Translations under genes and position numbers: made by a program
Part shown: positions 18,099 to 37,185 of the stretch, one piece after another
How positions within the stretch are numbered: position 1 is the first letter of the stretch
How the letters are laid out: every line of letters begins with the position of its first letter
Source: an uncultured Bacteroidota bacterium
GTDB taxonomy: Bacteria; Bacteroidota; Ignavibacteria; Kryptoniales; JAKASW01
Reading direction: 5' to 3'
Length of the DNA stretch: 64,000 nucleotides
Assembly: GCA_963714955.1 (NCBI GenBank)
Contig: CAVQQJ010000007.1
Coordinates: 37,917-101,916, forward strand
The notes under the pieces: generated by a model
Seen by the model: only the letters and a program-made list of their open reading frames with translations
Databases searched by the model: none
Told to the model about the DNA's origin: nothing

Positions 18099-18213
18099 TG
18101 CTACTGCTGCCCCCTAATGCATAGTCCCTCATCGATTTTCGGATCCTTCACGCGTCCAATGACGATGAAAGTTTCGGTTAGAGTTACTACAATATGGTAA
18201 CAGGAGTAACTAT

Positions 18214-19232: not shown

Positions 19233-19310
19233 TACGCTTTATGATTCTAAAAAGAAAATAAATTCGCTACGTTCTTTGTTCAGGGAGCAAAAACGCCACT
19301 TGAGCGATTG

Positions 19311-19345
19311 GTTAGGCCGCAGTTCACAGCCGTGACTAACGAGCC
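19311..19345 (-). repeat. attC-like core pair just downstream of the VOC stop codon
   Basis: Plus strand reads GTTAGGC, 18 nt, then CTAACGAGCC. On the gene-sense strand this is GGCTCGTTAG followed by GCCTAACC. Confidence 0.45.
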
Positions 19346-19348
19346 TGC

Positions 19349-19735
19349 TTATTGGCCTTGAGGCGGCTCCCATAGCTCGACCTTGTTTCCCTCTGGATCA
19401 ATGACCCAGGCAAACTTCCCATACTCGGATTCGTCAATCTTCTTGAGCACATTGCAGCCTTCTTCCTTCAAGGCTTTGACCAAGGCGTGGAGGTCGTCCA
19501 CTCGGTAGTTGACCATGAACGGAGCAGAGCTCGGAGCAAAGTGATTACTTTCTTCCGGATCGATTAACCAGGCGGTTGTGCCTGTGACCGGCTTACCCTC
19601 AGCGTCGGTCCAATCGAAGGAAGCTCCGCCCCAGACTTGGACATCGATTCCCAAGTGCCGCTTGTACCAAGCCTGCAATGATGGAGCGTCTTTGGCCTTG
19701 AAGAAGATGCCGCCGATGCCAGTGACTCGTTTCAT
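19349..19735 (-). CDS. VOC-family (glyoxalase/bleomycin-resistance fold) protein
   Basis: 128 aa. GIGGIFFKAKD...FMVNYRVDDL...KFAWVIDPEGNKVELWEP. Confidence 0.85.
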   Translation of the reverse strand: MKRVTGIGGIFFKAKDAPSLQAWYKRHLGIDVQVWGGASFDWTDAEGKPVTGTTAWLIDPEESNHFAPSSAPFMVNYRVDDLHALVKALKEEGCNVLKKIDESEYGKFAWVIDPEGNKVELWEPPQGQ

Positions 19736-19794
19736 ATGACCTCCTATGTGTGGTGGTGGTGAGTGGAATGTTTCTTCTGCGGCTTAAGGGGACA

Positions 19795-19866
19795 GCTAAG
19801 CCTCGCCGACGAAAAGCCGCCGCCATGTAGTTAGTTGCGCGGACGTTCCAAGATACTTTCCTCATG
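19795..19866 (-). repeat. attC-like intergenic repeat (degenerate copy)
   Basis: GCTAAGCCTCGCC...GCCGCCGCCATG...GCGCGGAC...CTTTCCTCATG parallels the blocks of the 27483-27564 copy. Confidence 0.4.
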
Positions 19867-20321
19867 TCGCATCAAGCGATAATCTGTTGATAATCGATTC
19901 CGAAAGGGCTGCACATATTGTGCACAGCTCGATGGAATTGTTTTTGTCTCGGATTGATTTGATCAAAAGGGGGAATGGGCTCCCCAATGGCATATGTGAA
20001 ATTAATACTTTGGCAAGAATCTGTCAAGCAAAAAATGGACGGTAGATGAGCCTCAACCCCGAGACTCCTCATGTAACGATCCATCGGGGACGACGGGGAT
20101 CCATCGATGCTGGTGGAAAGGTGTGATTTCTAAATTTTTATTCTGGATTTTTAGATGGGATCTATAGGCGACTTCGCCATTTGCTAATCTCTCTATAAAG
20201 ATAGTAGCAAAGGCAAACCTGCCATCAGGCGAAATTGTTGGCAAAGGGAGTTTGCCGCCAACGCATCTTTTTAGGTAGTATTAATCAAATTGTTGTGTGA
20301 CAAATTCGATAGGGAGAAATG

Positions 20322-20354
20322 AAAAACGCCGACTTATTTAGGGTCGGCGTTTTC
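20322..20354. terminator. Bidirectional rho-independent terminator
   Basis: AAAAACGCCGAC, a 9-nt loop, then GTCGGCGTTTT. Confidence 0.75.
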
Positions 20355-20374
20355 ATTTATTCATCATTACTGTC

Positions 20375-21097
20375 TTAGGATATTTTCCTCAAATATATCA
20401 GACTTGCTACTATGTCATTCATTTCATCATCAGATATGTGATATAAATTGTCGTTGCTGAGAAAGAGATGTTTGCCGTTTGGTTTATATTCAAAATTCCA
20501 ATAGTATGATGCATGTTTATCCCCCGATTGCGTTGTTGCAAATGCGACAACATGGTAATTTGTGTTCTTTAATTCCACCTTGAACTTGCCATCAGCGTCT
20601 GTCTTGTCGTGAATGATGTCGTCTTTGAGACTGTCCAGATACATCTGAATTGCAACAGCCTCAGCCCGATAATCTGTTGTGAAGGTGTGGTAGTTGTCGA
20701 CTGTTTTCTGATATTCGTCTGCTTTCTCTTTACACTCCTGAGCCTTTCTAGACGCTTGTTCGGCCTCCATGGCGTCGCCTTTTTTCTTAAATGTCGCGCT
20801 TAAATCCATATAAGAATTGTAAAAACGCGTATAGGTGTCAATGCACTTCAGATTTTCAGTTCTGGAAAAAGCGTCCGCGGCGTTCAAATTCAAAATAAGC
20901 TGTTTGTATAAAAGAGTGTTGGTATCAGATGCGGCCTTGAATTGCTCATCTGTCAGGAATGAGACCGTGACTAATCCAAGTTTTACATTACCTGCGTCTT
21001 TTGTAACCACAAAGGCTTCTACATTCACTTCAGGTTTACCGCATCCTGCCAAGAGCAAAGCCAATAATAATAAAATGACTGTCATTCTATTCTTCAT
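20375..21097 (-). CDS. Hypothetical lipoprotein
   Basis: 240 aa. Lipobox LLLAGC. No recognisable domain. Confidence 0.65.
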   Translation of the reverse strand: MKNRMTVILLLLALLLAGCGKPEVNVEAFVVTKDAGNVKLGLVTVSFLTDEQFKAASDTNTLLYKQLILNLNAADAFSRTENLKCIDTYTRFYNSYMDLSATFKKKGDAMEAEQASRKAQECKEKADEYQKTVDNYHTFTTDYRAEAVAIQMYLDSLKDDIIHDKTDADGKFKVELKNTNYHVVAFATTQSGDKHASYYWNFEYKPNGKHLFLSNDNLYHISDDEMNDIVASLIYLRKIS

Positions 21098-21177
21098 TCG
21101 TTTATTCCACCCGGTGAGTTATGAATGTTTTTAGATTATTGTGGCACACGATACTATTTGGTTGATTTTGAGAGTAT

Positions 21178-21630
21178 TTACTGATTCAATGTTATAGATG
21201 CAATACCTGCCATATCACCTCTGAAATCTTTTAGCCAAAGATAGCCCTGTAAGGATGAATCTGCAATTTGAGCCTCATAAAACAGAGGATTTGAAGACTC
21301 AGGAGGATATAAATAATCGAATAAAGAATCGTTTTGAATTATTCCTATGTGCGTAAATGAGGTAAATTGTAAATGTTCATTTGCATGTTCTAAACTGTCT
21401 CCAATCACGCCATAACCTTTAACAGTATCATTTGATTGATATGTTATGTAGAACACTATTGGTTGACTAATTGCATGGGGTGGTAACGGAAAACTTCCAG
21501 ACCACGTGCCCATTAGGTTTGGAATAGGGACTCTTGGTTGTAATGGTTCAACTATTGAATTCTTTTTTTTACTGCATCCTGTCAAAAATAATACTGACAG
21601 GACAAAAATTATTATCAGTTTGTATCTCAT
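21178..21630 (-). CDS. Hypothetical lipoprotein
   Basis: 150 aa. Lipobox LFLTGC. Confidence 0.65.
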   Translation of the reverse strand: MRYKLIIIFVLSVLFLTGCSKKKNSIVEPLQPRVPIPNLMGTWSGSFPLPPHAISQPIVFYITYQSNDTVKGYGVIGDSLEHANEHLQFTSFTHIGIIQNDSLFDYLYPPESSNPLFYEAQIADSSLQGYLWLKDFRGDMAGIASITLNQ

Positions 21631-21695
21631 ATGTCTGCCTATGATGGGCGTGACAGACCAAGGCTGCGTAATATTAATACAACATTTTTCCTCCT

Positions 21696-21834
21696 GTTAC
21701 AACAGCGCGCATGAACACCGCCGCGAATGACGACGAATGTAGTTGGGTGAGTGGGGAGCATGCGAATTTCTTTTCTCTTGTTGAAGATCCCGCTGCTATT
21801 AACGGGGACTATTTCCTTTTTAAAGTGTTAGGGC
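21696..21834 (-). repeat. attC-like intergenic repeat (long copy)
   Basis: Plus strand begins GTTACAAC...GCCGCGAATG and ends GGGGACTATTTCCTTTTTAAAGTGTTAGGGC. It lies between the GNAT stop and the start of the next gene. Confidence 0.5.
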
Positions 21835-21851
21835 AGCAGCAACACGGTGAA

Positions 21852-22376
21852 CTAGATTTCCAGCGCCATTACAAGGTCGTTATACTCGTGATGTCCTACT
21901 TTGAATTTTCTTTCGCCAACTATCTTGTAACCCAATTTTTGATAGAACGCAATTGCGCTTGTATTTCGAGAATGCACGCCCAGGAGCAATCGTCGGGAAT
22001 TGTGATGCTTCGCGTGATCCAGTGCTTCCTGCATTAATCGTTTTCCAATTCCAGTCCCTTGAAATGGAGATAATAGGTAAATGCGCTTGATTTCGAGATC
22101 GTCGGCTTGTGGGTCGGCAATCGGCAGGTTTGGAGGAGCAACTACTAAATACCCGATTGGTGCATTACCGGGTTGGATTTCTGCGAGCCAGAGGCCAAAA
22201 GTGCTTTGTTTGAGCCAGCTAAGATACACAGAAGTAGAATGTTGATTCGCGCAATGTGCAAGAATATCATTTCCGTCAAGCATCCCAGCAAAGGATTCGA
22301 GAAAAGTGGCTTGCCCGAGGAGCGAGAGGGTGGTTTCATCACCGATTGCACACTGTCGAATCGAAATCTTTTCCAA
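21852..22376 (-). CDS. GNAT-family N-acetyltransferase
   Basis: 174 aa. Acetyl-CoA motif FQGTGIGKRLM. AFYQKLGY. Confidence 0.88.
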   Translation of the reverse strand: MEKISIRQCAIGDETTLSLLGQATFLESFAGMLDGNDILAHCANQHSTSVYLSWLKQSTFGLWLAEIQPGNAPIGYLVVAPPNLPIADPQADDLEIKRIYLLSPFQGTGIGKRLMQEALDHAKHHNSRRLLLGVHSRNTSAIAFYQKLGYKIVGERKFKVGHHEYNDLVMALEI

Positions 22377-22402
22377 TCTATCGAGAATTCCTTTCTGCGG
22401 TT

Positions 22403-22472
22403 GCCTTACAAACCTCCGCCCGCTGCGGCGACGTGCGGAGAATGATGGGTAATCCGCAACGTAGACTTTTTA
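22403..22472 (-). repeat. attC-like intergenic repeat
   Basis: GCCTTACAAACCTCCGCCCGCTGCGGCGACGTGCGGAG...TTTTAGC. It overlaps the stop codon of the upstream T9SS gene. Confidence 0.5.
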
Positions 22473-24749
22473 TTTTAGCAACAACAGTTTCTTCGTGGCC
22501 ACAAAATTCCCCGCTTCGATCCTGTAGAAATATACCCCGCTCGCTTGCCTCGACCCATCGAAGGTGACCTGATACAAGCCCGGTTGTTTCTGTTCGTTCA
22601 CCAATGTCTTCACTTCTCTTCCAAGCACGTCGTAAACCTTCAATGTGACGAAACCGTTTACCGGCAACTGATAGCTGATGAGAGATGAAGGATTAAACGG
22701 ATTTGGATAGTTCTGTTCAAGAGCAAAATGAATCGGAATCTCTTCTGGGTTATCCTTAACGCCGGCGACCATGTCAGATATGGCGCGGCGCCACACTCCG
22801 CATGCAGAGCTTCCCCCCGCAAAACCCCCGCTTGTAGAGCTACCGCTGGTAGAGCTTCCGGTTGCAGAACCGACAAAGACAAATGTTCCTTTGGGGTCGA
22901 CGGCAACAGAAGAGATCAAGAGATTAGCCAATCCTTCATTGGCCGCTTTCCAGCTGGAACCGTTGTTCGTGGATAGATACACGCCGCCAAGTCCAATGCC
23001 AGCAAAGATAGTCGATCCATCTGGAGTGACGGCGAGAGAATTGACCCACGGAGTTGGTAATCCATTGTTTATTGCCTTCCAACTTGTACCGTTGTTCGTG
23101 GAGAGAAAGACTCCGCCGCCATTAGTGCCAGCGAAGAGTCTCGTCCCATCGGGGCTGATCGCAAGAGAATAAACATAATCATTCGTTAATCCAGAGTCGA
23201 CAACTGTCCAACTTGTACCGTTGTTCGTGGAGAGAAAAACTCCGCCTCCATTAGTGCCAGCGAAAAGTCTTGTCCCATCGGGGCTGATCGCAAGAGAGTA
23301 GACGGAGTCGTTTGTTAGTCCAGAGTCGACCGCCGTCCAGTTTGAACCGTTGTCGGTGGAAAGAAAGACGCCGTTGTGGGTAGTGCCGGCAAATATGTTC
23401 TTCCCGTTGGGACTCATTGCAAGAATTCTGGCCTGATCATTTGTTAACCCATTGCTGACTGATACCCAGCTTGAACCGTTGTCCGTGGATTGATACACGC
23501 CGCTATAGTAGGTACCAGCAAAGATGTTTGACCCATTCGGGCTAATCACAAGAGACCCGATGCCATTTTCCCCCATTCCGTTGTTGATCGCCGTCCAGCT
23601 TGAACCATTGTCGGTAGAAAGAAAAGCTCCGTAAGAGTCACTGCCCGCAAGGATATTCGTATCGCCGGGAGTGAATGCAAAAGATAAAATAAAGACGTTC
23701 GTTATTCCGTTATTCTCAGCTGTCCAACTTGAGCCGCCGTTCGTAGAAAGAAAGACTCCATCGGAATGAGTGCCGACGAAAATGTTCATCCCGTTGGGGC
23801 TCAGCGCGATGGTCCACACGCCCCCCAATTCAGAGCCTATTGTCCGCCAGCTCGAACCGTTATCGGTTGAAAGGAAAACGTCATCACCACCACCCCAACA
23901 ACCGGCGTAGATATTCGCACCATCTTGGCTAATTGCAAAAGAAGAGATGTTGGTGTTCGTTAATCCGCTGTCGACGGCTGTCCAGCTAGAACCATCGTTA
24001 GTAGAGCGAAAAAGTCCTGCGCCCCACGGGCCTGTTGAGATAATCGGCCCGCTGTTAGGGCTGACTGCGGCAAAGATGCTCCCATTCTTTGTGCTTATTG
24101 CAAGAGAATAGACGTTCATGTTTGTTAATCCGCTGTTAACCGCCATCCAGGTTGAACCATTGTCCGTCGAAAGAAAAATTCCGCCACCTAAAGTGCCTGC
24201 GAATATCTTCGATCCATCAGGACTGACAACAAGAGACCAAATATTAGTGTTGGTTAGTCCACTGTCTACTGCCGTCCAGCTTGAACCGTCATTCGTTGAC
24301 AGAAAAACTCCGCTACCAGTTCCCGCGAAGATTTTCGTCCCATCAGGATTTATTGCAAGGGAGTTGACGCCAGTGTTAGGTAAACCATTGCTGACCGCTA
24401 CCCAGCCTGAACCGTTGTCTGTTGAAAGAAAGACTCCACTGATCCAGCTTTGACAGCCTGCAAAGATATTTTTTCCATCAGGGCTAATTGCAAAAGAAGA
24501 AATGCCTGCGTTTGTTAATCCAGAGTATGTCCAGCTTGAACCGTTGTCAATGGAATGAAACACTCCGCCGCCCCATGTTCCTGCAAAGATATTAGTTCCG
24601 TCCGGGGTGATTGCAAGGGCATGAACGCTACCACCATACGGTCCATTACTTTGCACCCATTGAGCGATCGATGAATGTGCATCGGTGAATATTACAAACA
24701 CCACTAATATGAATCGGAAGATGTTTTTCATTTCCTTATCCTTTTGCAA
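22470..24749 (-). CDS. Secreted Asp-box/BNR-repeat beta-propeller protein with a T9SS C-terminal sorting domain
   Basis: 759 aa. Signal peptide. At least 12 tandem units of about 43-47 aa (GGVFLSTDNGSSWTAV-SGLTN). C-terminal domain NYPNPFNP...VYDVLGREV...SGVYFYRIEAGNFVATKKLLLLK. Confidence 0.85.
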   Translation of the reverse strand: MQKDKEMKNIFRFILVVFVIFTDAHSSIAQWVQSNGPYGGSVHALAITPDGTNIFAGTWGGGVFHSIDNGSSWTYSGLTNAGISSFAISPDGKNIFAGCQSWISGVFLSTDNGSGWVAVSNGLPNTGVNSLAINPDGTKIFAGTGSGVFLSTNDGSSWTAVDSGLTNTNIWSLVVSPDGSKIFAGTLGGGIFLSTDNGSTWMAVNSGLTNMNVYSLAISTKNGSIFAAVSPNSGPIISTGPWGAGLFRSTNDGSSWTAVDSGLTNTNISSFAISQDGANIYAGCWGGGDDVFLSTDNGSSWRTIGSELGGVWTIALSPNGMNIFVGTHSDGVFLSTNGGSSWTAENNGITNVFILSFAFTPGDTNILAGSDSYGAFLSTDNGSSWTAINNGMGENGIGSLVISPNGSNIFAGTYYSGVYQSTDNGSSWVSVSNGLTNDQARILAMSPNGKNIFAGTTHNGVFLSTDNGSNWTAVDSGLTNDSVYSLAISPDGTRLFAGTNGGGVFLSTNNGTSWTVVDSGLTNDYVYSLAISPDGTRLFAGTNGGGVFLSTNNGTSWKAINNGLPTPWVNSLAVTPDGSTIFAGIGLGGVYLSTNNGSSWKAANEGLANLLISSVAVDPKGTFVFVGSATGSSTSGSSTSGGFAGGSSACGVWRRAISDMVAGVKDNPEEIPIHFALEQNYPNPFNPSSLISYQLPVNGFVTLKVYDVLGREVKTLVNEQKQPGLYQVTFDGSRQASGVYFYRIEAGNFVATKKLLLLK
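23079..23336 (-). repeat. Near-identical 129-bp (43-aa) tandem duplication inside the T9SS gene
   Basis: 23079-23207 and 23208-23336 differ at only a few positions. They encode DSGLTNDSVYSLAISPDGTRLFAGTNGGGVFLSTNNGTSWTVV and DSGLTNDYVYSLAISPDGTRLFAGTNGGGVFLSTNNGTSWKAI. Confidence 0.9.
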
Positions 24750-24805
24750 AGTGTGACGGCCAATTGCAGCTAACTACTGCAATGGCACCATAAGTAATTC
24801 GTGTG

Positions 24806-24886
24806 TTCTAACGAACCCTCGCCGCTGCGGCGACGCGCGTCAGTTGTTCTTTAGCGGGGACTATTTCCTTTTTAGAATGGTTTGCC
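24806..24886 (-). repeat. attC-like intergenic repeat (complete three-block copy)
   Basis: TTCTAACGAACCCTCGCCGCTGCGGCGACGCGCG...TTTAGCGGGGACTATTTCCTTTTTAGAATGGTTTGCC. Confidence 0.55.
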
Positions 24887-24938
24887 CGCGCGTGGTGGAA
24901 TACTCATTTGACAAGCGATAAAGATATTACTTGGGCTG

Positions 24939-25718
24939 TTAGCCTTTTGTTTGTGCTGCTATTCGGTTCTTCCTGTGCTTTTTCCTGTTCCAGATAAATT
25001 TTATCGAAACTGCTCTTCGATAACAACTTTCGATGCACTTACCGCAAAGAAGACACTCTGAGTTCGTTACGAGCCCGTCATTCTTGGCGACATATTGTGT
25101 TATGGGGATCTTCACCAAGCAGTCCCTGTCGCATTTGCCACAAAAGTTGCATTTATCCGTATCAACCACTGGTATCAATCTTGAATACGTTGTTCCTGCT
25201 GCGCAGAGACTGCCCATCATACATAGATTTCGACACATCCATCGCCTCTCCAAAAACAAACCAAAGAGAATAGCTCCGCTGCAATCGTAGAGCCAGACTT
25301 GTTTGTAATGGTTGTCGAAATTCATGTCGAAGAACCCAAGATCAAACTGTAGATGTGTTATCCTCCCTGATTTCAGATTGAAGAACAAAAATGCGAAAGC
25401 AGTGATAAAGAAGGCATTTACCACCACAATCCGATTCATTTTCAGCCACCATCCTGGCTTGCGCCACGGAATTTTAAACAGAGACTGCTGGCCCGAGAAA
25501 TCCTGAAGCGTACCAAAGAAACAGAGCCAACCACATCCGACTCTCCCAATGAGGGGTGTGAGCACTATCAGACTTCCCCAGAGAACAACAACCGATGTAA
25601 CCACTCCCCAGTAAATCGAATGCCAAATGAAAGCAAAGTTTAACGCTCTAAAAAATATGGGTGTCAGAATTAAAAAGACTGTTCTGGCTAGCAAATTATA
25701 AGTGAACAACTTCTTCAT
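24939..25718 (-). CDS. Membrane-bound 4Fe-4S ferredoxin-type protein (NapH/MauN-like)
   Basis: 259 aa. TM helices, CGWLCFFG, and two CxxCxxCxxxC motifs (CNFCGKCDRDC, CLLCGKCIESC). Confidence 0.8.
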   Translation of the reverse strand: MKKLFTYNLLARTVFLILTPIFFRALNFAFIWHSIYWGVVTSVVVLWGSLIVLTPLIGRVGCGWLCFFGTLQDFSGQQSLFKIPWRKPGWWLKMNRIVVVNAFFITAFAFLFFNLKSGRITHLQFDLGFFDMNFDNHYKQVWLYDCSGAILFGLFLERRWMCRNLCMMGSLCAAGTTYSRLIPVVDTDKCNFCGKCDRDCLVKIPITQYVAKNDGLVTNSECLLCGKCIESCYRRAVSIKFIWNRKKHRKNRIAAQTKG

Positions 25719-25756
25719 CTTCTCATTCCATTGACGGCTGGTTTAAAATACGGCAA

Positions 25757-25840
25757 CGCCAACGACGGCGAACGGACCGTCGCTCCTGTCAAGAGCAGCT
25801 GGACAGGTAAGCTGCGGCGACGTGCAACACTGCTTGACTA
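25757..25840 (-). repeat. attC-like intergenic repeat (divergent copy)
   Basis: CCAACGACGGCGAACGGACC...GCTGCGGCGACGTGC...GACTATTTC. It abuts the stop codon of the T9SS gene. Confidence 0.4.
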
Positions 25841-27397
25841 TTTCAATAACAACAATTTCTTCGTCTCGGCGAATGTGCCAGCCTGTAATCGATAGAAGTA
25901 AACACCGCTTGCAATATTTGCCGCATTCCACTGTCGAGCGTAACTTCCCCCCTGCATTTCTCCGGAGACAAGCGTTGAAACTTCTCTCCCCAACAAATCG
26001 AAGACTTTCAACGATACAAATGACCGGGATGGAAGAGCAAACGAGATTGTTGTCGTCGGATTAAATGGGTTTGGATAGTTCTGTGAAAGGGCAAACTCTT
26101 TGGGAATTCCGCTGGGCTCATTGACGGCGTCGATTTCATCGCCAGTCGCGAAAATCTCAACGGATGAATAATTGCTTGTCCCGGCAGTATTCGCGGCACT
26201 CACATGCCAGAAGTATATTGTCCCAGCCGCAAATGGATTGGATGATTTCGCAACCGTATCTACCAACGTCGTGTCGAAAACAATGTTTCCATTAACGAAT
26301 CCACCAATTGAATCAAGCGCGTTATTAGATGCAACTTGAAGATGATATGTTGTCGCACCTGGTGACGGATTCCACTTGAAAGTTGTCCTCCTGGGCACCT
26401 CAGTCGTCCCAAGCGGTGACGCAAGCAGCGGTGTCGGTGGTCGTTCCATTGGTGTATGCACAATGACTCCATCGTGCCCGACAGCCCAGCCTTCTGAATC
26501 ATTAATGAAGTAAATATCTTCGAAGTAGATTCCGGGATGCGCATTAACGACCTGGCTTGTCCATGTGTCCCCACGGTTGGTCGATTTCAAAATAGCGTCG
26601 TTAGGTCCGCCGGCAACATACGCGACGGAGTCCCCCTGAAGAAAAAGCTTGAAGAATACGGCATCCGGGGTTGATTCTATGATCTTCCAATGTGTCCCGC
26701 CGTCAATTGATTTCATTATTAATCCGTTACTTCCGACGCAGAGACCGACCAGGGAATCGAAAAACATGATGTCGGCAAGCCCGGCATGCGTGTAGCTTGA
26801 ATCCTGATTCCACGAAAGGCCCCCGTTCATTGTCGAGAGGATCAGGCCGGAATCGCCGGTAGCCCAACCGAGGCTTGCATTGAGAAAGAAGATACGAACC
26901 AATCTCCCTGAAAATCCGATATACTGTGGATACCAATTCTCGCTCTTCTGGCTCGACGCATCAATGACGGAGAGAGCTGTGTAGCTGCGCCCGCCAGCCA
27001 TCCAGCATAGCGTCTGCTTATTAGATACCATGCCAAAAATTCCATAATAATCCGCCATGTACGGTGAATTATCAATGTTTTGTTGCCAGGATACGCCGCC
27101 ATCTGTTGTTGACAAGATGACATTGTAATCTCCGACGATCCAGCCGTTGAGGCTGTCCAAAAAGAAGACCTTGTTGAGGTTTGATGAATACTGGTTCGAC
27201 ACCTCGTTCCATGAAGCACCGCCGTCAGTGGTGCTAAGGAAAGCCCCATTTTGTCCGACTATCCAGCCATTCATTAGCGAGGTGAATCGAACTCCAAAAA
27301 GATTTGAAGTCACGTTGGATGCTTGTTGTGTCCATTGGGCTGATACATTTGAAATCACACAAGTAAAAAACGCAAGAAGCAATAGAATCTTTCTCAT
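25838..27397 (-). CDS. Secreted Ycf48/BNR-like beta-propeller protein with a T9SS C-terminal sorting domain
   Basis: 519 aa. Signal peptide. TTDGG-SW repeats. C-terminal domain NYPNPFNPTTTISF...SGVYFYRLQAGTFAETKKLLLLK. Confidence 0.85.
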   Translation of the reverse strand: MRKILLLLAFFTCVISNVSAQWTQQASNVTSNLFGVRFTSLMNGWIVGQNGAFLSTTDGGASWNEVSNQYSSNLNKVFFLDSLNGWIVGDYNVILSTTDGGVSWQQNIDNSPYMADYYGIFGMVSNKQTLCWMAGGRSYTALSVIDASSQKSENWYPQYIGFSGRLVRIFFLNASLGWATGDSGLILSTMNGGLSWNQDSSYTHAGLADIMFFDSLVGLCVGSNGLIMKSIDGGTHWKIIESTPDAVFFKLFLQGDSVAYVAGGPNDAILKSTNRGDTWTSQVVNAHPGIYFEDIYFINDSEGWAVGHDGVIVHTPMERPPTPLLASPLGTTEVPRRTTFKWNPSPGATTYHLQVASNNALDSIGGFVNGNIVFDTTLVDTVAKSSNPFAAGTIYFWHVSAANTAGTSNYSSVEIFATGDEIDAVNEPSGIPKEFALSQNYPNPFNPTTTISFALPSRSFVSLKVFDLLGREVSTLVSGEMQGGSYARQWNAANIASGVYFYRLQAGTFAETKKLLLLK

Positions 27398-27482
27398 GGT
27401 ATTCTCCTTTTCACTTGGTCATGGTTGTTGTCAAATTGCGACGGCAACCAACCTGCGTAATCATGTATGCTTTATTCACACC

Positions 27483-27564
27483 GCCTAACGAACCCTCGCA
27501 CGCTGCGGCGACATGCTTCCACCTGTTTTTTAGCGCGGACTCTTTCCTTTCAAAATGGTTAGGC
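27483..27564 (-). repeat. attC-like intergenic repeat, the best-formed copy (82 bp, GCCTAAC ... GTTAGGC)
   Basis: GCCTAACGAACCCTCGCACGCTGCGGCGACATGC...TTTAGCGCGGACTCTTTCCTTTCAAAATGGTTAGGC. The terminal 10 bp are complementary (ACCGCCTAAC / GTTAGGCGGT). The stop codon of ORF 27559-27903 lies inside the GCCTAA core. Confidence 0.6.
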
Positions 27565-27903: not shown

Positions 27904-27934
27904 GGTGAGTGTCTCCTTTTGAATGTAGAGTGTT

Positions 27935-27990
27935 GCAACCGCCTAACAACCTCCGCATGTTGCGGCGAAGAATGAACACGTTTTGCACAA
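27935..27990 (-). repeat. attC-like intergenic repeat (core plus GC hairpin block)
   Basis: GCAACCGCCTAACAACCTCCGCATGTTGCGGCGAAGAATG. Confidence 0.5.
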
Positions 27991-28032
27991 ATACAGGATT
28001 ATTTATTGGAAACGGCACCAGGCAGCTGACAA

Positions 28033-29007: not shown

Positions 29008-29017
29008 TTTTTTCCTC

Positions 29018-29124
29018 TCTAACAGTTAAACCTCTGCTGCGGAAGGGACCTGAGTTGTCTACGACCTGTAGAGCGGCAGCATGCGACTTGTTGATCCGCA
29101 GTAAATAAATCTACAGGTTTTTCT
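29018..29124 (-). repeat. attC-like intergenic repeat (divergent copy)
   Basis: CTAACAGTTAAACCTCTGCTGCGGAAGG...AGCGGCAGCATGCGAC. Contains 7-8 bp internal stems (CCTGTAGA/TCTACAGG, CTGCGGA/TCCGCAG). Confidence 0.4.
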
Positions 29125-30369
29125 TTACGAACCAGCAGGAGAATCTACCTTGCCGATAAACAGGATCGTTCCGGATTGATGTTCACGAATAGCAAAAATA
29201 AAGGGACGATCGATACGCATCTGCGGAATTTCTACAAACACGGTCGCAACGACTGTAATCACTGTGACAGCTGCAGCTTCGGTCCCTTCTTCGTTGACAT
29301 CCACGTACGTTTTGTGCAAAACGTCGGATACATTTAAGCCCCCCTCTTGACTTATATGGCTTAAGTCCGCCCTCCTCGCGTCAAACACTATCCCCATCCC
29401 AAGCGCCGTCAGGTCATCCCTTAATGATCTGGAATAATTCAGCGTGAATTTCGGCAGGTATAAATCGACTTTCGCTGAATCTAATTTGCTGATGATTGCA
29501 TTCCATTGTATTTGCGTTAATCCCGATGCAAATTGGTCGATCGAGGTTCCGGACGCGGGCAATATAACCGTCATGCTGAATGACTTATCGCCATACGGCA
29601 GATCTATCGCCTGCAGAGAATTATCGCCATAATACGCAAACGTGTTCTCCTGGCTCATTAAATTGCATTGTGTAATGCTTCCATCAGAACAAGTGAATGG
29701 CGCTTGCCTGGATTTCGAGGTATCAAACGTGTACGTCCATGCCCCTTTGAAATAAATGGCGTTGATCAGATACATCACGACACTTGGGGGTATAGTGCCG
29801 CCGATGATCGTCGGGATTTTGCCGTTTGTTTTCGTGTCGACCCAATTGTTGATGGTCTGTGCCGCGCTGGGCTGAGTAAAATCCAGTCCGTCCACGTCTG
29901 CATCAAAATACGTCTTATTCACGCTTAAGAAAGCCGGCAGGACCGGGAATCCGTTTCTATACCAGATGGAATTGGCATTCTGGAATATGACTTGAGCGTC
30001 AAGAGCCACTAAATAGGAGGAGATATTCTTATACGAAGTGTTGATGTCACTTAGTGACATCCCCGCATTGCCAAGCGTTTTCTCCAATGAATCAAGCGTC
30101 GGACCATTAGCACCATTGAGCAGCATGCCGAAGGCCATTGAAACGCTGAAGGGGGAGATGAAGACGTTCTTGTTCTGCTGACTTCCGTTGATTGTGGCAA
30201 AGAGCTTGAAGCCGAATGAATTGTCCGATGAAGAAACAGCTTTTTCCATTGTGCTCAGTTGACCCACAATTGGCTGACCTTCCGACGGTCCGGTAGTATT
30301 TGTGCGACAACCGAATAAAACAACTGTGAAGATAATGCAAACAAGAGCGAAGAATATTGTCCTATTCAT
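29125..30369 (-). CDS. Serpin-family serine protease inhibitor, lipoprotein
   Basis: 414 aa. Lipobox VLFGC. Serpin motifs SPFSVSMAFGML and NAIYFKGAWTYTFD. Inhibitory-type hinge EEGTEAAAVTVI, then DRPFIFAI. Confidence 0.88.
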   Translation of the reverse strand: MNRTIFFALVCIIFTVVLFGCRTNTTGPSEGQPIVGQLSTMEKAVSSSDNSFGFKLFATINGSQQNKNVFISPFSVSMAFGMLLNGANGPTLDSLEKTLGNAGMSLSDINTSYKNISSYLVALDAQVIFQNANSIWYRNGFPVLPAFLSVNKTYFDADVDGLDFTQPSAAQTINNWVDTKTNGKIPTIIGGTIPPSVVMYLINAIYFKGAWTYTFDTSKSRQAPFTCSDGSITQCNLMSQENTFAYYGDNSLQAIDLPYGDKSFSMTVILPASGTSIDQFASGLTQIQWNAIISKLDSAKVDLYLPKFTLNYSRSLRDDLTALGMGIVFDARRADLSHISQEGGLNVSDVLHKTYVDVNEEGTEAAAVTVITVVATVFVEIPQMRIDRPFIFAIREHQSGTILFIGKVDSPAGS

Positions 30370-30486
30370 ACTGGACTCCTTTCTTTTAAAGCGAAAGCAA
30401 AGATATTTTTTTTACTTCAATTGCATGGCACCACGATCATTGCTTGTTATAGCGGACACACGTTTTAGAATCGTTGACCGATTGCC

Positions 30487-32577
30487 TTACTTGATTACCA
30501 TTAATTTCTTCGTTTCAACAAAACTTCCAGCACTAAGCCTGTAGAAATAAACACCGCTCGACAAGTTGCTCGCATTGAAAGTCACCGAGTGTGTGCCCGC
30601 AGTCTGACGGTCATCGACTAATGTTCTCACAAGCCGTCCCAGTGCATCATAGACTTTTAAGGTGACGAGGGTGCTCACCGGTAATTGATAACTGATCACG
30701 GCCGAGGGGTTGAAGGGGTTTGGGAAATTCTGATCAAGCTCGAACCTCATCAGAAGACCGACCTCTTTGGTTTTGACAGAGGTCGCCATCTCGGACAATG
30801 GCCGTTTCCAGACTCCTCCGTCCCGTGTTCCGGCAAACAGGCTACTGTCGTTGAGAGCAATGGCCGTTACACGAAGATCTGCAAGACCGGAATTAACGGG
30901 AACCCAACTGATTCCGTCATCGGCTGAATGAAAGACCCCGCCGCCAATTGTGCCTGCAAAGATATCGTTGCTGTTTACGGCAAGCGTCTGAACATAAAAG
31001 GATGATAATCCAGAATCAGCTCTCATCCAGCTTGAGCCTCTATTGATTGAGCGGTATATATCCTCGTACGTGGCGGCGAAAAGCGTGTTGCTGTTGGCTC
31101 CGAGCGCATTGACCTCGGGATAATCAGTCAGCCCGGAGTTGAAGGCTGTCCAACTGGAGCCGTTGTTCGTAGAAAGAAAGACACCGCCTGTATATGTCGC
31201 TGCAAAGAGATCGCTGTCGACGACGGCGAGAGCCAGAACAACCGTCTCAGTCAAACCTAAGTTAACTGCCGACCAGCTGCTGCCGTTATTTGTGGACAGA
31301 AAAACGCCGCCGGCTGTGCCTGCGAAAAGATTATTGCCGATTAAAGCAAGCGCATAAACATCCGGATTCGTCAATCCAGAATCTACTGAACTCCAGTTCC
31401 TGCCGTTGTTGGTTGAAAGAAAAATGCCGCCGCCAAACTCGCCCGCAAAGAGATTGTTGCCGCTGACCAAGAGAGTCTGAACAGAATAAATGTTGTCTGT
31501 TAAGCCGGTATCAGCAGCGTTCCAATTCTCGCCGCTATTTGAAGAATAGAATACTCCGGCGTCCTGTGTGCTCGCAAAAAGGTTGCTCCCCATAACTGCA
31601 AGCGCTGAAATATTTGTGAAAGCCAAACCGAAATTAACAGACGTCCAAAGCGCCCCGCTGTTTGTGGAAAGAAATACGCCGTCACCGAGAGTGCCGGCGA
31701 ACAGATCGGTGTCTCTAAGAACGAGAGCATTTACATGTCTCGAGCCGAGGCCAGAATCTATTGCCGACCAGCTGATCCCGTTGTTTGTTGATAGAAAAAT
31801 GCCTCCACCGGTGCCCGCAAACAGATCGCTTCCGTTAACGGCAAAACTGGTAACGCCGTAGTCGGCCAAACCGGAGTCAACGGCTGACCAACTGGTTCCG
31901 TTGTTGGTGGATCGAAAAATACCGTTGCCGAGAGTCCCCATATACAGATTGGTATCGCTGACAGTCAATGCTCGGACGTTAGCGTACGTTAAGCCTGAAT
32001 TGACGGGCGTCCAACTATCGCCATTGTTGGTTGAGAGAAAAACGCCGTCGCCGCCTGTGCCCGCAAATAAGTTGCTGCCGTTGACCGCAAAAGCATGAAC
32101 ATCGGTATTGATCGTGAATCCGGAATTTACGAGAGTCCAATTTGTACCGTTATCGCTCGAACGGAAAACACCGCTGTAGGTTCCGGCAAAAAGATATCCG
32201 CCGCTGACAGCAAAAGCCTGAACATTAGGATTAGTCAATCCGGTTGTTGCAGGTGTCCAGTTCTCACCATTGTTTGTAGAAAGAAAGATGCCGCCAATGT
32301 ATGTTGCCGCAAAGAGGTTTTCCCCCTTGACGGCCAGCGCATTAATGATAGGGTTTGTTAAGCCAGAATTGGCGGATGTCCAGCTTGCGCCATTATCCGT
32401 CGAACGATAGACTCCATTCGTTAGCGTTCCAGCAAAGAGATAGCTGCCGTTCATTGCGATGCATTGGATCATACCATCTCCTGAGGGCCCAGTTGTTTGG
32501 ATCCACTGCGCGTGCGTTTTGGATAATGGCACTATAGCAACGGTCAGAAGGAGAAGAACCTTGATCTTAAGTCTCAT
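30487..32577 (-). CDS. Secreted Asp-box/BNR-repeat beta-propeller protein with a T9SS C-terminal sorting domain
   Basis: 696 aa. Signal peptide. About 13 units (GGIFLSTNNGxxW). C-terminal domain NFPNPFNPSAVISYQL...SGVYFYRLSAGSFVETKKLMVIK. Confidence 0.85.
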   Translation of the reverse strand: MRLKIKVLLLLTVAIVPLSKTHAQWIQTTGPSGDGMIQCIAMNGSYLFAGTLTNGVYRSTDNGASWTSANSGLTNPIINALAVKGENLFAATYIGGIFLSTNNGENWTPATTGLTNPNVQAFAVSGGYLFAGTYSGVFRSSDNGTNWTLVNSGFTINTDVHAFAVNGSNLFAGTGGDGVFLSTNNGDSWTPVNSGLTYANVRALTVSDTNLYMGTLGNGIFRSTNNGTSWSAVDSGLADYGVTSFAVNGSDLFAGTGGGIFLSTNNGISWSAIDSGLGSRHVNALVLRDTDLFAGTLGDGVFLSTNSGALWTSVNFGLAFTNISALAVMGSNLFASTQDAGVFYSSNSGENWNAADTGLTDNIYSVQTLLVSGNNLFAGEFGGGIFLSTNNGRNWSSVDSGLTNPDVYALALIGNNLFAGTAGGVFLSTNNGSSWSAVNLGLTETVVLALAVVDSDLFAATYTGGVFLSTNNGSSWTAFNSGLTDYPEVNALGANSNTLFAATYEDIYRSINRGSSWMRADSGLSSFYVQTLAVNSNDIFAGTIGGGVFHSADDGISWVPVNSGLADLRVTAIALNDSSLFAGTRDGGVWKRPLSEMATSVKTKEVGLLMRFELDQNFPNPFNPSAVISYQLPVSTLVTLKVYDALGRLVRTLVDDRQTAGTHSVTFNASNLSSGVYFYRLSAGSFVETKKLMVIK

Positions 32578-32644
32578 AGTATTTCCGCAAACAAGATTGA
32601 AAGAAGTGTTACGAAAATTCTCAAAAACCGTGCAACCAGCTCGA

Positions 32645-34804
32645 TTATTTCAGCAGCAAAAGTTTTTTCGTCTCGCTGTATGTTCCCGCTTGTAAGCGAT
32701 AAAAATATACCCCGCTTGCCATAGTCGCCGCATTCCATTGCTGGGTGTAGCTTCCCGGCTCCAGTTCTCCGGAAACAATAGTCGATACCTCTCTTCCCAA
32801 TATGTCAAATACTTTTAACGATACGATCGACCGGACTGGAATAGCGAATGAGATGATTGTCGACGGGTTAAACGGGTTTGGATAGTTCTGCATTAATAAA
32901 AATGCTTTTGGAATAGTGATCGAGTGTTCATTGACGGACGTCGTTGACTCTGTCGTCTTGAATACACCTCCACCATACGTGGCTGCATATGCGTAACCAT
33001 CGCGGTCAAAAACGATCGACCGTACATCTGAATATGTTAGTCCTTGATTTAGTGAAACCCAAGTGATTCCACTATCTGGTGAAAAGAATATTCCATCTTT
33101 TGATCCTATGAAGATCTTCTTGGTCGAATTGACAGATATGGATTGGATTGATTTGGCCAAGAGACCCGTGTTCGATGCAAACCAGTTAGCTCCCGAATCG
33201 GTTGAACAATATATTCCACTGTTATCTGTGCCCGCAAACAACTTATTCTCCGAACAAGAGATAGAAATTACCGCATCATTTGGTAGGCCTTTACTGCAAG
33301 CCGACCAACTCTTACCATTATTTTGCGAACAATAAACTCCAGACCCTGTAGCTGCATATTGATTACCAGATGCTCCGAAGCCTAATGCAAATACTTTCGA
33401 AGTAAGTCCGCTGTTAGCTAATTGCCAACTCGAGCCGCCGTCCGACGATTTGAATAAGCCGCTCTGTGTGGAGGTGAACATGGTACCTGTAGAGTCCATT
33501 GCCATTGCTATCACATTCGAATCAGCTAGACCCGTATTTGATCGATACCATTGGTCACCGTTGTCGGCAGAACGATATATACCTGCAGCACCCATGGTTC
33601 CCGCAAATTCAACGTTCGCCCTATTAACTACAACGGCGGTCACGTTCATTACACCAATGCCATTGTTAATAGACACCCAGTCTTGCCCTTGATCGGTTGA
33701 ACGATAAATACCTCCCTCTGCAGTACCTGCAAACAAATCACCGTTGAGATTTGTCGCTATAGACTGAACATCACTTCTCGATAGGCCTTCATTGCTCACG
33801 TTCCAATTGTCTCCTTTGTTAGTAGATTTGAATACTCCCGAACCCCCCGTGCCAACATATATGTTGTCATTGGAGTCTGCAGCGATGCACTCAATCCACC
33901 ATTCAGTAAGACCATTATTAACTTCTGTCCAAGTAGAGCCATTGTCCGTTGAACGCTCTATCCCAGCCACTTCTGCATAGCTTCCCGCGAACATGTTACC
34001 ATCCTCAGTCATCAGAAAGCAGCTGAAATCGCCTCCACCTCCAACCGGACTCGACGGGGTGGTCATAGTCATCAATTTCCAGTGATCTCCGTCGTCTGAT
34101 GAGCGGTAGACCGAAAAATTTACAATAGAGAAGAGATCGCCATTTCTGGCAACATAGATCGGGCCTCCGTAAAGCATCTGCGCGCCAACTGATGGCGTTT
34201 GAATTCCGTTACTTGTACTGCTCCAAGTTTGTCCGTCGGTCGTAGATCTGAATATCGCATTCCGCTGCGTCATGACGAAAACATCCCCGTCGGGCTTCGA
34301 AGCAAGAGAGATAATTCCAAAGAGTGCGGGAATGCTGTCACTTGTGATCCATGTCATTCCCCTATCGGTGGATCGGTAACATAATGGATAATAAAGGTCC
34401 CCAACCACTACAGTTCCTTTTGCAGTTATGGTTACACATGACATTGGATTGCTGAACAGGAGTTTCCAGTTGATACCATCATCCGAGGAAGAATACAATC
34501 CCGTGGGAGAACAAAGGTAAACATATCCCGAATCGTCACATGCGACAGAATTCAGTGCCGATGTGGCATCTAGCCCAGTATGTAAAGCCGTCCATGTTAA
34601 CCCCTCATCGGTAGAACGAAATAATCCCACACCTCTTGAGATTGCAAACAAATGTCCGTTTATGCTTGCAGTGATTGCTGTTATATCGCCTCCTGATGGC
34701 CCTATTAGACCGCTTGTCTTCTGCCATTGGGCGTTAAGTACCCGAAAAATGAAAATGTCGAGCGACAATACAACAATTAATCCAAAAACGCTTCTTACAT
34801 TCAT
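32645..34804 (-). CDS. Secreted sortilin/BNR-like beta-propeller protein with a T9SS C-terminal sorting domain
   Basis: 719 aa. Signal peptide. Repeats (RSTDxGxxW). C-terminal domain NYPNPFNPSTIISF...SGVYFYRLQAGTYSETKKLLLLK. Confidence 0.85.
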   Translation of the reverse strand: MNVRSVFGLIVVLSLDIFIFRVLNAQWQKTSGLIGPSGGDITAITASINGHLFAISRGVGLFRSTDEGLTWTALHTGLDATSALNSVACDDSGYVYLCSPTGLYSSSDDGINWKLLFSNPMSCVTITAKGTVVVGDLYYPLCYRSTDRGMTWITSDSIPALFGIISLASKPDGDVFVMTQRNAIFRSTTDGQTWSSTSNGIQTPSVGAQMLYGGPIYVARNGDLFSIVNFSVYRSSDDGDHWKLMTMTTPSSPVGGGGDFSCFLMTEDGNMFAGSYAEVAGIERSTDNGSTWTEVNNGLTEWWIECIAADSNDNIYVGTGGSGVFKSTNKGDNWNVSNEGLSRSDVQSIATNLNGDLFAGTAEGGIYRSTDQGQDWVSINNGIGVMNVTAVVVNRANVEFAGTMGAAGIYRSADNGDQWYRSNTGLADSNVIAMAMDSTGTMFTSTQSGLFKSSDGGSSWQLANSGLTSKVFALGFGASGNQYAATGSGVYCSQNNGKSWSACSKGLPNDAVISISCSENKLFAGTDNSGIYCSTDSGANWFASNTGLLAKSIQSISVNSTKKIFIGSKDGIFFSPDSGITWVSLNQGLTYSDVRSIVFDRDGYAYAATYGGGVFKTTESTTSVNEHSITIPKAFLLMQNYPNPFNPSTIISFAIPVRSIVSLKVFDILGREVSTIVSGELEPGSYTQQWNAATMASGVYFYRLQAGTYSETKKLLLLK

Positions 34805-34873
34805 GACTATGTCCTTATTTCGAATGGTCTAAAACAATAGTAGGTACTTTCTATAATTACGAAATGCGTCGCG

Positions 34874-34918
34874 ACCTAACGAACCGGAGCCAGCAGCGGC
34901 ACTTGATTCATCGACAGT
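34874..34918 (-). repeat. attC-like intergenic repeat (short copy)
   Basis: ACCTAACGAACCGGAGCCAGCAGCGGCACTTG. Confidence 0.45.
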
Positions 34919-34920
34919 TA

Positions 34921-37118
34921 TTACTTCAACAACATCAACTTCTTGGTCTGGACAAAATTTCCGGCCGTCAGCCTGTAGAAATATACTCCGCTCGCCAAGC
35001 TCGAACCATCGAACGTCACACGATACGATCCCGGCTGTTTCTGGTTATTGACAAGTGTGGCGATCTCTCTGCCGAGAATGTCATAGACTTTCAATGTCAC
35101 CATCCCTGCCTTCGTAAGATCGTAAGAGATTGTTGTGGACGGATTGAACGGGTTCGGGTAGTTCTGACCGAGTTCCGATCGTTCGGGTACCGTCGGCCGC
35201 CTGAACGATGAAGAAACCTCCGTGAGGCTGCTTCTGTAAAACCTGGCGCCGGAAGTCGCAAGAATCTCCATCTCATCGAGCAAAATGCAGCGCACCGGAT
35301 AGGGAAGCGTTGCTATGAGAGTCCATTGTTCGCCCCCGTCGGTAGATCGGTAGATAGAGCCCCTCGTAGATCCTGCAAAGAGAATCCCTTTATTGTTGAC
35401 CGTTGCCGAGATCAGAGATGTGTCGGTGATGCCGGATTTTGTTTGAGTCCATGTGAGGCCGGTATCGTTCGACCGGTACACACCGCGTGAGCCGAACGAG
35501 AAAATGAGTGTGTCGCTGATCTTCGCGACGGCGGCGACGTTCTGATCGACTCGTCCACGGTTAGTCCACGAAATGTCGTCCACGGTTGCTTGGGAGATTC
35601 TGCCGTCCAGTGTGAAGCCCAACATACCACTTAGGATTTGTGGATAAATTCTATGCGGCGCCGTGTGACAGAACGCTATGTAATTCCCATCCGTAATCCA
35701 CGTGGGAATCCATTCGGGGAACGTCGCATAGATGGGATTCCAAAAAATACCCTCATCCGCCCCGACCAAGAGATCTCTCCAGACATTGAACTGCGTTGAG
35801 TCTGTCGTGAATGGCTGGATGTGGTAGTAAACCTCAAGACAATTGAACCGCCGACCGGACGACATCCCTAACTGATCCGGGATCTTCGTCCATGAAACAC
35901 CGCTTTGAGAAGTATAAGCGCCGTTCTCTGCCGTGGCGGCATAGTAAGACCCCATCGTATCTTGAATGATCTGAGTGATAAGAGGAAGCGTCAGCGAAGT
36001 CTGGGTCCATGTTCTTCCTTTGTCTACAGATCGGAAGATCCCCGCGCTGTCTGTTCCGACAAGCAAAGCGCCGTTCTTGTCGATCAACCCGCAGGAAATA
36101 TCATATCCACCGGGCAGGGAGTTCGTGAAATTCGAAGTGTCAAGAGGAGTAACCATGCCGCTGTTCAGAACTGTCCATGATAGCCCCCTGTTTGTGGTTT
36201 CGTAGACTCCGCCCCATGCCCCGGCATAGACAGTATCTTTTCGGAGAGCTACAATGGTCCTGATACCATAGCCATTGTGGGCAATCCCGGCCGGTCCGAT
36301 GGAAGCCGTATCTCCCGACGCGCTGATGCTGGATAGTCCGCCGATACTCCCCGTAAATATTGTCCCCGCAGAATCGACCGCCATGACATCGATCGGATTC
36401 ATGAGCTTGGCGAGAAACGTCCAATTCGCGCCCCCGTTTGTCGAGCGGAATATTTCGTATGCGTAAGCGCCAAGACCTTCGTAGACGCCGGCATACATTG
36501 TTCCGTCCGAGCTCACCGTCAACGCAAGGACCAAATGGAATCATGCCCTCCCCAATTGCATTCCTCCCAATCGGCGCCGGCATTTGTCGATCGGAGCATA
36601 TGATCCTTCGAAGCCGCAACCATCGTAGCGCTGTCCACCATCGCAAGCTCTAACACATCTGTTCCGGGAAACGGATTGGATCCATAAGTTGACCAGTTCT
36701 TACCGTCGTCGATTGATCGATAGATCCCGCCCCCGAAGGCAGGTGCGTACAGCGATCCATCCCTCAACGCAATGATCGAAGAGGGAGTAAACGTAAGGCT
36801 CACACTATCGAGCAAGGTTCCGTTGGCGGAAAGGCGAAAGAGATACCTACCGTAGGACTGACCAAATGCGAAAGTGAGGATGGTCCCGGGCCGGGAGATG
36901 GCCATTGTCGTAACGCCGTACTTCATAGGAGTCTGGCGCCATGTTGCACCCCTATCGGTCGAAGTATAGATTCCGCTGCCATTTGCTGAAGTGCCGGCAT
37001 ACATGATCCCGCTGGAATCAATTGCCAGCGACGTTACCCAATCCTGAAAATTAGGAACCGTTTGAGAATAGACGTTCGCGACGCAGGCCGCGCAGATAAT
37101 GAACATGACTCTTTTCAT
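34921..37118 (-). pseudogene. BNR-like beta-propeller T9SS protein split by a frameshift near 36525-36535
   Basis: ORF 36519-37139 carries the signal peptide (MKRVMFIICAACVANVYSQ, ATG at 37118) and the first blades. It stops at ...HDSIWSLR. The next frame continues LVLALTVSSDGTMYAG through to a T9SS C-terminal domain (NYPNPFNPSTTISYDL...SGVYFYRLTAGNFVQTKKLMLLK). Confidence 0.75.
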
Positions 37119-37161
37119 GATGATTTCTCCTCCTAGCAAGGATTCCCGTCCTTTTGAGCTG

Positions 37162-37185
37162 GCCTAACGAATTGCGGCAGGCCTG
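37162..37185 (-). repeat. attC-like core (minimal copy) upstream of the first array gene
   Basis: GCCTAACGAATTGCGGCAGGCC. Confidence 0.4.

Follow-up and report, generated by a model that had tools for sequence, protein, structure and literature searches.

In integrons, each gene cassette carries an open reading frame (ORF) with an attC site behind it. The bottom strand of this site forms a hairpin made up of an R box (AAC/GTT), a spacer left unpaired, an L box containing extrahelical bases, and a terminal structure that varies. Recombination is carried out by the integrase IntI, which binds both boxes and cleaves R' between G and TT; cassettes leave as circles and are inserted again. In the superintegron of Vibrio cholerae each of many cassettes is followed by a long (>100 nt) and homogeneous attC site, the V. 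cholerae repeat, with the stop codon often within or beside R''. Here we describe an intergenic repeat family in a 64-kb stretch (hereafter the window) of contig CAVQQJ010000007.1, positions 37,917 to 101,916, from an uncultured Bacteroidota bacterium of the Ignavibacteria. The repeats punctuate a minus-strand gene array at ~19.3–37.2 kb and, judged by homology, are very likely attC relics of a former integron cassette array, at sites that are probably now recombinationally inert.

The closest described systems are clusters of attC sites that lack an integron integrase (CALINs), which are called by IntegronFinder where at least two model-passing attC sites have no integrase within 4 kb, and which have been proposed to be degraded integrons arising by integrase loss (PMC4889954, PMC9024848). 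Complete integrons have been reported in Chlorobi, Ignavibacteriae and Salinibacter ruber with IntegronFinder 2.0 (PMC9024848). The window resembles a CALIN in that small accessory ORFs lie on one strand, each followed by an attC-family element, with no integrase nearby; the window also lacks a recognisable intI pseudogene. CALIN sites pass the attC covariance model, whereas the window sites lack the L box and have mostly lost one R core, so that the array probably falls below the definition. It would be CALIN-like, with sites degraded past the defining features of their family, and would represent a later stage than a CALIN. A second comparison is with sedentary chromosomal integrons of the Fibrobacteres–Chlorobi–Bacteroidetes (FCB) group, represented by the arrays in metagenome-assembled genomes (MAGs) presented below. 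These share with the window the same attC family and a cargo of orphan, GNAT, VOC and type IX secretion system (T9SS) propeller genes, including two cassettes at ~90% identity, but the relatives have intact ~150-nt attC sites and at least one array with IntI, and the window has neither. The V. cholerae repeats differ in sequence family and host phylum; in addition, the integrase of our relatives is co-oriented with the cassettes, and the window sites are truncated and probably inert.

Window repeats and the attC family of related genomes

The original prediction recognized three blocks in the repeats, read on the gene-sense strand and named M1 to M3. With ≤2 mismatches allowed, M2 (GCAYGTCGCCGCAGC) is found five times and solely on the minus strand; 0.13 copies are expected and none of 100 shuffles reaches five, and its recurrence in the window is clearly non-random. 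M3 (GGTTCGTTAGGC) alone is a marginal signal, with nine matches at ≤2 mismatches (two of them on the plus strand) against 3.8 expected, a number reached by one shuffle in 100. The M1 35-mer has one copy only at ≤3 mismatches, with diverged relatives at 24806–24886 and 21789–21833 and a weak one at 30446–30479. General repeat searching of the window is dominated by intragenic propeller repeats, and the only family corresponding to M2–M3 is D19, with four copies; at the Rfam gathering threshold the whole window yields only a tRNA-Asn, and no family matching the repeats.

The predicted placement of the blocks is borne out: M1 starts at or beside stop codons, the TAA of GCCTAAC at 27559–27561 being the stop of the gene at 27559–27903, M3 lies shortly 5' of start codons, and the array genes are all on the minus strand. 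The elements thus described follow directly 3' of ORFs in one orientation, repeated along the array. Eleven sites had been listed upstream of start codons, and nine carry a remnant (upstream of 19735, 22376, 24749, 25718, 27397, 27903, 34804 and 49464, and at 37118, which keeps an R'-like 17-mer only). Two are unsupported: upstream of 21630 the segment 21789–21833 holds just the 5' (M1) half, and upstream of 29007 the sequence at 29017–42 is unconvincing. The M3 variant GGCTCGTTAG at 19334–19345 is not a core site; it is part of the 3' end of a glyoxalase cassette, together with which it is conserved in another genome.

Scanning a genome collection (one genome per species) with the motif GTCGCCGCAGC-N(4-34)-GGTTYGTWAG returned 47 loci, ~30 of them in a few soil MAGs that carry the label 'uncultured Bacteroidetes' and others on contigs labelled Gemmatimonadales, Anaerolineales and Chitinophagaceae. 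In the Bacteroidetes- and Gemmatimonadales-labelled loci the motif repeats every 0.35–2.5 kb on one strand and forms the 3' end of elements ~150 nt long (~100 nt in the Gemmatimonadales loci), each running from (G/C)CCTAAC to GTTAGGC. The 3' half of the site was also seen in L007 (JBAUMB010000029.1, Anaerolineales label), L003, L016 and L021 (Gemmatimonadales) and L043 (Chitinophagaceae).

In a consensus fold of 55 copies the R box (CTAAC/GTTAG) is followed, after an unpaired spacer, by an L box in which GCT[C]AAGCTG[A]CGG pairs with CCGCAGCTTAGC, leaving two bulged bases (bracketed) on the 5' arm, and by a variable central region with a CGCGCG stem; the L' and R' sequences of the family are GTCGCCGCAGCTTAGC and GTTAGGC. 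An R box, unpaired central spacer, L box, extrahelical bases and variable terminal structure are the features by which attC sites are defined (PMC4889954). The Gemmatimonadales-type copies have the same geometry with another L-box sequence, which gives three compensatory L-box pairs relative to the Bacteroidetes type, and in a covariation test 97% of cells are paired, as against 20–53% when the partners are slid. A family covariance model, R1 (160 positions), finds 209 matches in 26 loci, of which ~180, all in Bacteroidetes-labelled MAG loci, score 108–183 bits. The MAG arrays of the family include OY970334.1, CAWGZY01 and OY969800.1, and full-length sites number at least 90 in the sampled loci of one contig and at least 59 in those of another, the loci being non-overlapping.

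The array in OY969800.1 (locus L024) adjoins a 340-aa ORF (5876–6898) that matches the TIGR02249 integron integrase family over its full length with 434 bits (cut-off 265), and is 49% identical to the IntI1 sequence used for comparison. The integrase is co-oriented with the cassettes in L024, and also in L059 (10001–11047) and L060 (10001–11050); in class 1 integrons it is transcribed divergently from the cassette array. A weak attC-like site (7805–7974, 22.8 bits) lies upstream of the SDR gene that precedes intI in L024. The sites of L059 and L060 are ~200 nt long with a common spacing of R'', 8 nt, bulged C, 6 nt and bulged A.

The junctions of the MAG arrays carry a cassette recombination signature. 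In 138 of 157 cassettes, the 7 nt following the GTTA of the cassette start are perfectly complementary to the 7 nt that precede the TAAC of the cassette end, as is expected because cassettes cut within GTT of R' carry both parts of one original site. The same complementarity is found in 22 of 178 comparisons between the flanks of one attC and in 6.5% of random pairs (Mann-Whitney p = 4e-41). Sense ORFs exceed antisense ORFs in length in 140 of 166 spacers. By fold, covariation and junctions, the related ~150-nt elements can be regarded as genuine attC sites. The largest cassettes, of 1.4–2.3 kb, encode T9SS-sorted (Por_Secre_tail) BNR propeller proteins of 443 and 726 aa and have an intact attC site on either side, so that cassettes of the relatives do carry large T9SS genes. 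This removes the objection, raised with the original prediction, that 2-kb T9SS genes would be unusually large units. No relevant report of integron cassettes with T9SS cargo emerged from a literature search. The presence of the family across lineages reflects either cross-phylum cassette transfer or mis-binning; MAG taxonomic labels may reflect binning.

Shared cassettes and the state of the window sites

Genes of the window are found elsewhere as units bounded by these cores, as the original prediction had proposed to check. The cassette at 27559–27903, whose start TTAGGCGGTTGC and end GCAACCGCCTAA are reverse complements, is 91–92% identical to one that occurs at three places in OY970334.1, and the homology starts exactly at GTTAGGCGGTTGCA (R') and stops exactly at GCAACCGCCTAACCA (R''). 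Past GCAACCGCCTAACCA the OY970334.1 copies run on into the L'' arm GTCGCTCAAGCTGACGG, a segment that the window does not have. The glyoxalase cassette (19349–19735) is 89% identical to a cassette in the Anaerolineales-labelled L007, with homology again bounded by R' and R''. These two units thus have the ends of gene cassettes, bounded by cores and found in other contexts. The GNAT cassette with its short-form site (see below) is 85–90% identical in L049, L053 and L054, where its neighbours differ in each, and in L034 and L046 homologues of the window T9SS genes lie directly against intact attC sites.

A sequence profile, A1, built solely from the related elements of other genomes and with no window sequence, matches the window seven times at E<0.03, in every case between genes, on the minus strand and inside 19299–34900 (Table 1). 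Each match spans just part of the element. An eighth match at 49538–49556 is weak (E=1.4), and nothing comparable is present in the other ~45 kb. The remnant at 19777–19843 extends over 57 nt with 79–88% identity to attC sites in six MAG loci (A1 E=0.0009). In terms of attC anatomy, M2 is the L' arm, M3 the 3' spacer plus R', and M1 R'' plus part of the central variable region.

The L'' arm is absent from every window copy, the GTCGCTCAAGCTGACGG segment being missing in alignment with the homologous cassettes. The covariance-model check suggested earlier was made with two models of our own, R1 and a core model, R2 (74 positions, R and L boxes only). It gives at most 16.2 bits with R1 and 18.5 bits with R2, both for Copy A (27483–27564) and both aligning the R box alone. 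The models, which are family-specific, yield one marginal window match (E about 0.015). Complete copies running from GCCTAAC to GTTAGGC had been predicted, and exactly one exists, Copy A; it is also the only strict RYYYAAC...GTTRRRY pair in the array, and the others are half-sites or have degenerate cores. R' is mutated in three copies, to GTAAGGC (22403), CTTAAGC (19777) and GTTCGCC (25767); for the last, the homologous junction in L050 retains GTTAGGC. Single copies folded as single-stranded DNA on both strands give z of -0.1 to -1.5 (the latter for Copy A), no better than shuffles, and show no convincing structure. No IntI or fragment of one was found in the 64-kb window with L024 IntI and IntI1 as queries (best E=0.24), in agreement with the integrase having been reported as missing. 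Two adjacent genes (see below) are frameshifted, a further sign of decay unless the breaks are assembly errors.

R2 was also tried as a general attC detector; it missed the held-out attC sites of L059 and L060 and so provides no general negative test. A RYYYAAC/GTTRRRY scan with arm-duplex energies placed the window within the shuffle range and missed most L059 and L060 sites, which have deviating cores. A sigma-54 or extracytoplasmic function (ECF) promoter reading of M2 and M3, judged by eye, does not fit their variable spacing.

The attC reading of the original prediction therefore divides into two parts. It stands as to origin, through homology to attC arrays beside IntI and cassette-bounded homology. 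It does not stand as to function: that the window copies are attC sites in the functional, defining sense is not supported, as they have no L box or extrahelical bases, several GTT/AAC cores are mutated, only one copy has both cores, and no intI lies in the window. We suggest that M1 arose as R'' fused to part of the variable region after the loss of ~50–70 nt holding the L'' arm. Sites without an L box, several without an intact GTT or any R'', would no longer be efficient IntI substrates, and the array would be effectively frozen, its genes persisting as ordinary chromosomal genes while the sites erode.

Table 1. Elements and genes of the array and of the outlying unit (strand as in the window; A1, profile of related elements)
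Feature	Position	Strand	Size	Description
Array-end site	19299–19320	-		R'' + L'' start GCGGCCTAACCAATCGCTCAAG, truncated beyond; closes glyoxalase cassette; downstream array end; A1 positions 2–23, E=0.005
Cassette ORF	19349–19735	-	128 aa	Glyoxalase/VOC family
Remnant	19777–19843	-		Central region + L' arm (19794–19843); mutated R' CTTAAGCC (19777–19791) opens glyoxalase cassette
Copy C	21789–21833	-		After GNAT gene; 5' half of short form, R'' CCCTAAC + M1 part; 3' half missing
Cassette ORF	21852–22376	-	174 aa	GNAT acetyltransferase
Copy D	22403–22440	-		3' half only: L' arm M2 + spacer + R' mutated to GTAAGGC
Array gene	22470–24749	-		Propeller paralogue
Copy B	24806–24886	-		Short form after Fer4 gene; R'' degenerate GGCAAAC, R' GTTAGAA; A1 positions 46–154, E=0.004
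Array gene	24939–25718	-		Fer4 membrane protein
3' half	25767–25825	-		Right after T9SS gene stop; M2, inserted hairpin, degenerate R' GTTCGCC; A1 E=0.001
Array gene	25838–27397	-		Propeller paralogue
Copy A	27483–27564	-	82 nt	Short form; both cores, R'' GCCTAAC...R' GTTAGGC; no L'' arm
Cassette ORF	27559–27903	-	114 aa	No Pfam match
Copy E	27941–27969	-		Degenerate 3' half TTCGCCGCAACATGCGGAGGTT-GTTAGGC; opens cassette 27559–27903; aligned with L038, L042, L020
Array gene	28033–29007	-		BNR protein
Array gene	29125–30369	-		Serpin, full-length bacterial (Pfam Serpin 367 bits)
Array gene	30487–32577	-		Propeller paralogue
Array gene	32645–34804	-		Propeller paralogue
3' end remnant	34874–34900	-		GCTCCGGTTCGTTAGGT, upstream of T9SS gene 32645–34804; A1 positions 129–159, E=0.03
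Array gene	34921–37139	-		Propeller paralogue, frameshifted
R'-like site	37162–37178	-		GCCGCAATTCGTTAGGC, most upstream; core only, assignment tentative
Isolated unit	48243–49591	-		Cassette-like (tentative); SIR2-like gene 48286–49464; attC-like remnant upstream (49484–49549, 49567–49591); 5'-arm-like sequence downstream (48243–48268)

The recurrent short form and alternative explanations

A metagenome scan with the window-specific 3' variant GCAGCG...GGTTYGTWAG returned six contigs, which share with the window a short form of ~80–90 nt. It consists of CCTAACCA (R''), an A/T-rich segment (GGAAAGAGTCC; also written TTTTAAAAAGGAAAGAGTCC), a small hairpin, GTCGCCGCAGC, GCGRAG-like bases and GGTTCGTTAGG. 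Its consensus fold has six R-box pairs only, at -4.6 kcal/mol compared with -25 for the long form, and no L stem. Other deletion derivatives keep other pieces; that at 3445–3516 in L050, for example, retains CTGACGG/CCGCAG. The truncation seen in Copy C also follows the homologous GNAT cassette in L053.

Several observations weigh against simple decay of a frozen array. The short form, which looks to carry one and the same internal deletion throughout, lies behind different genes in the window (27483–27564, 24806–24886 and 21789–21833) and is present in L049, L050 and L053. Independent random decay would not yield such a form; either one derivative spread or this is a lineage-specific site type, and its recurrence on several cassettes is the main thing that the decay model leaves unexplained. 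M2 is invariant in the short forms despite the loss of its pairing partner. Cassette order varies among close relatives (the window, L049, L053 and L054), so rearrangement continued in the lineage. The low window scores come from models that miss the held-out Ignavibacteria-type attC sites of L059 and L060, and so report the loss of this family's L box and not a test for every attC. The integrase negative covers the 64-kb window, and an intI may be present elsewhere in the genome. Both frameshifts of the region, described below, could be assembly errors.

The short forms could be active non-canonical attC sites of a live CALIN, recombined through R''/R' by an IntI encoded elsewhere, with internal hairpins replacing the L box. 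Recurrence of the form on different cassettes in several contigs, the complementary R''/R' cores of the best copies, and the differing neighbours of the GNAT cassette and its short-form site in the window, L049, L053 and L054 would all fit, as would the frequency of integron integrases in Ignavibacteria-labelled genomes, where they are already annotated as such. We nonetheless consider this unlikely. Neither L box nor bulged bases remain in a fold reduced to its R-box pairs, the fold energies are like those of shuffles (z about -1.5), and most window copies are half-sites, some without GTT. There is no IntI in the window or in ~110 kb of related element-bearing contigs, and homologous recombination between repeats could equally cause the rearrangements.

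A reading of the ~85-nt short form as an attC derivative that propagates and functions with no L box, through R-box-only IntI recombination or as an exapted inter-cassette signal, is also rather improbable; it would account for the finding of one form behind different cassettes in several genomes of differing cassette order.

Co-option of the remnants as expression signals, whether as a 5' leader common to the genes or as a terminator or stabiliser between cassettes, with a GC-rich M2 hairpin before start codons, appears very unlikely. The position of M2–M3, 11–92 nt upstream of start codons, is accounted for by the layout of cassettes, in which the next ORF invariably comes after R'. M2 can form a hairpin with the bases that follow it, as with CTCCGC...GCGGAG at 22403–22440, but these GC-rich hairpins of 4–6 bp do not exceed those of shuffles; the M2–M3 spacing in the window varies from 6 to ~40 nt, and no Rfam family matches. 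The invariance of M2 in short forms would fit a signal function. A dispersed element of the repetitive extragenic palindromic (REP) or miniature inverted-repeat transposable element (MITE) type, unrelated to integrons, is hardly credible: the repeats are short, intergenic and GC-rich with some hairpin potential, but they are in one orientation and confined to gene boundaries of one array and one outlier, they show, R cores apart, neither terminal inverted repeats nor target duplications, and their homologues form attC arrays beside IntI with the cassette recombination signature. Neither the 5' leader nor the REP/MITE-like element, offered as fallbacks in the original prediction, is required for the pattern, and attC relics of a former cassette array remain the preferred reading.

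Genomic context and implications

The genes at 18.7–37.1 kb are all on the minus strand and comprise VOC/glyoxalase, GNAT, Fer4 membrane protein, serpin, orphan and propeller genes. Five BNR/sortilin propeller proteins are encoded in the array, four with a T9SS C-terminal sorting domain. In-frame repeats of 123–129 nt, in up to 30 copies with 60–94% identity, occur at 22866–24650, 28140–28860 and 30880–32450; these are the blades of the propeller paralogues. The serpin gene sits among the T9SS propeller genes with weak remnants alone on its flanks. The most upstream propeller gene is frameshifted near 36525, beside G-runs, giving overlapping ORFs at 36519–37139 and 34921–36534. A LuxR/GerE-type response regulator gene (37703–38379, plus strand) is split over three frames, with an intact 227-aa orthologue in L054 (1780–2463), and is either a pseudogene or an assembly error.

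The isolated unit at 48243–49591 lies ~11 kb off the main array, and its SIR2-like gene matches Pfam SIR2_2 and PADLOC Aga_SIR2 (70 bits). It may be a stray or split-off cassette with a defence-type gene, although its status as a cassette relic is tentative given the weak A1 match. Just downstream of the array end, a tRNA-Asn (15993–16067) is followed by a VapE-like primase/helicase gene (16567–17640), both on the plus strand; they may be what is left of an integrative element at the tRNA, with no integrase seen there.

A flanking 598-aa outer-membrane protein has homologues named Ignavibacterium, Ignavibacteriales, Melioribacteraceae or Kapabacteria, and T9SS cargo fits the FCB group. In the closest relative, L054, a cassette-like array (12081–21797) lies on the opposite side of this conserved, ShlB/POTRA-like gene from that of the window (19300–37200), with a different cargo of acyl-acyl carrier protein (ACP) thioesterase, SnoaL and beta-lactamase-fold protein genes. 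The accessory region is rearranged between near relatives. The 21.8-kb contig of this relative has attC remnants only and no integrase, and L054–L058 likewise have no integrase and a differently placed array.

The array points to a late phase of integron decay, in which cassette ORFs are intact and ~90% identical to mobile relatives while deletion or mutation has worn away the recombination sites. Arrays of this kind would probably escape standard attC models, and CALIN counts may thus understate the amount of cassette-derived accessory DNA in chromosomes. The related loci suggest that soil and peat Bacteroidota/Ignavibacteria carry integron arrays of very large size, one chromosome yielding at least 90 attC sites in its sampled part, with an unusual cargo of T9SS-secreted propeller proteins of up to 726 aa and possible spread of cassettes, as ~90% identical copies are also present in contigs binned to another phylum. 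The appeal of the system rests on these very large arrays in little-studied soil lineages, on their T9SS cargo, and on the recurrent short form without an L box, which offers a test case for how much of attC recombination needs.

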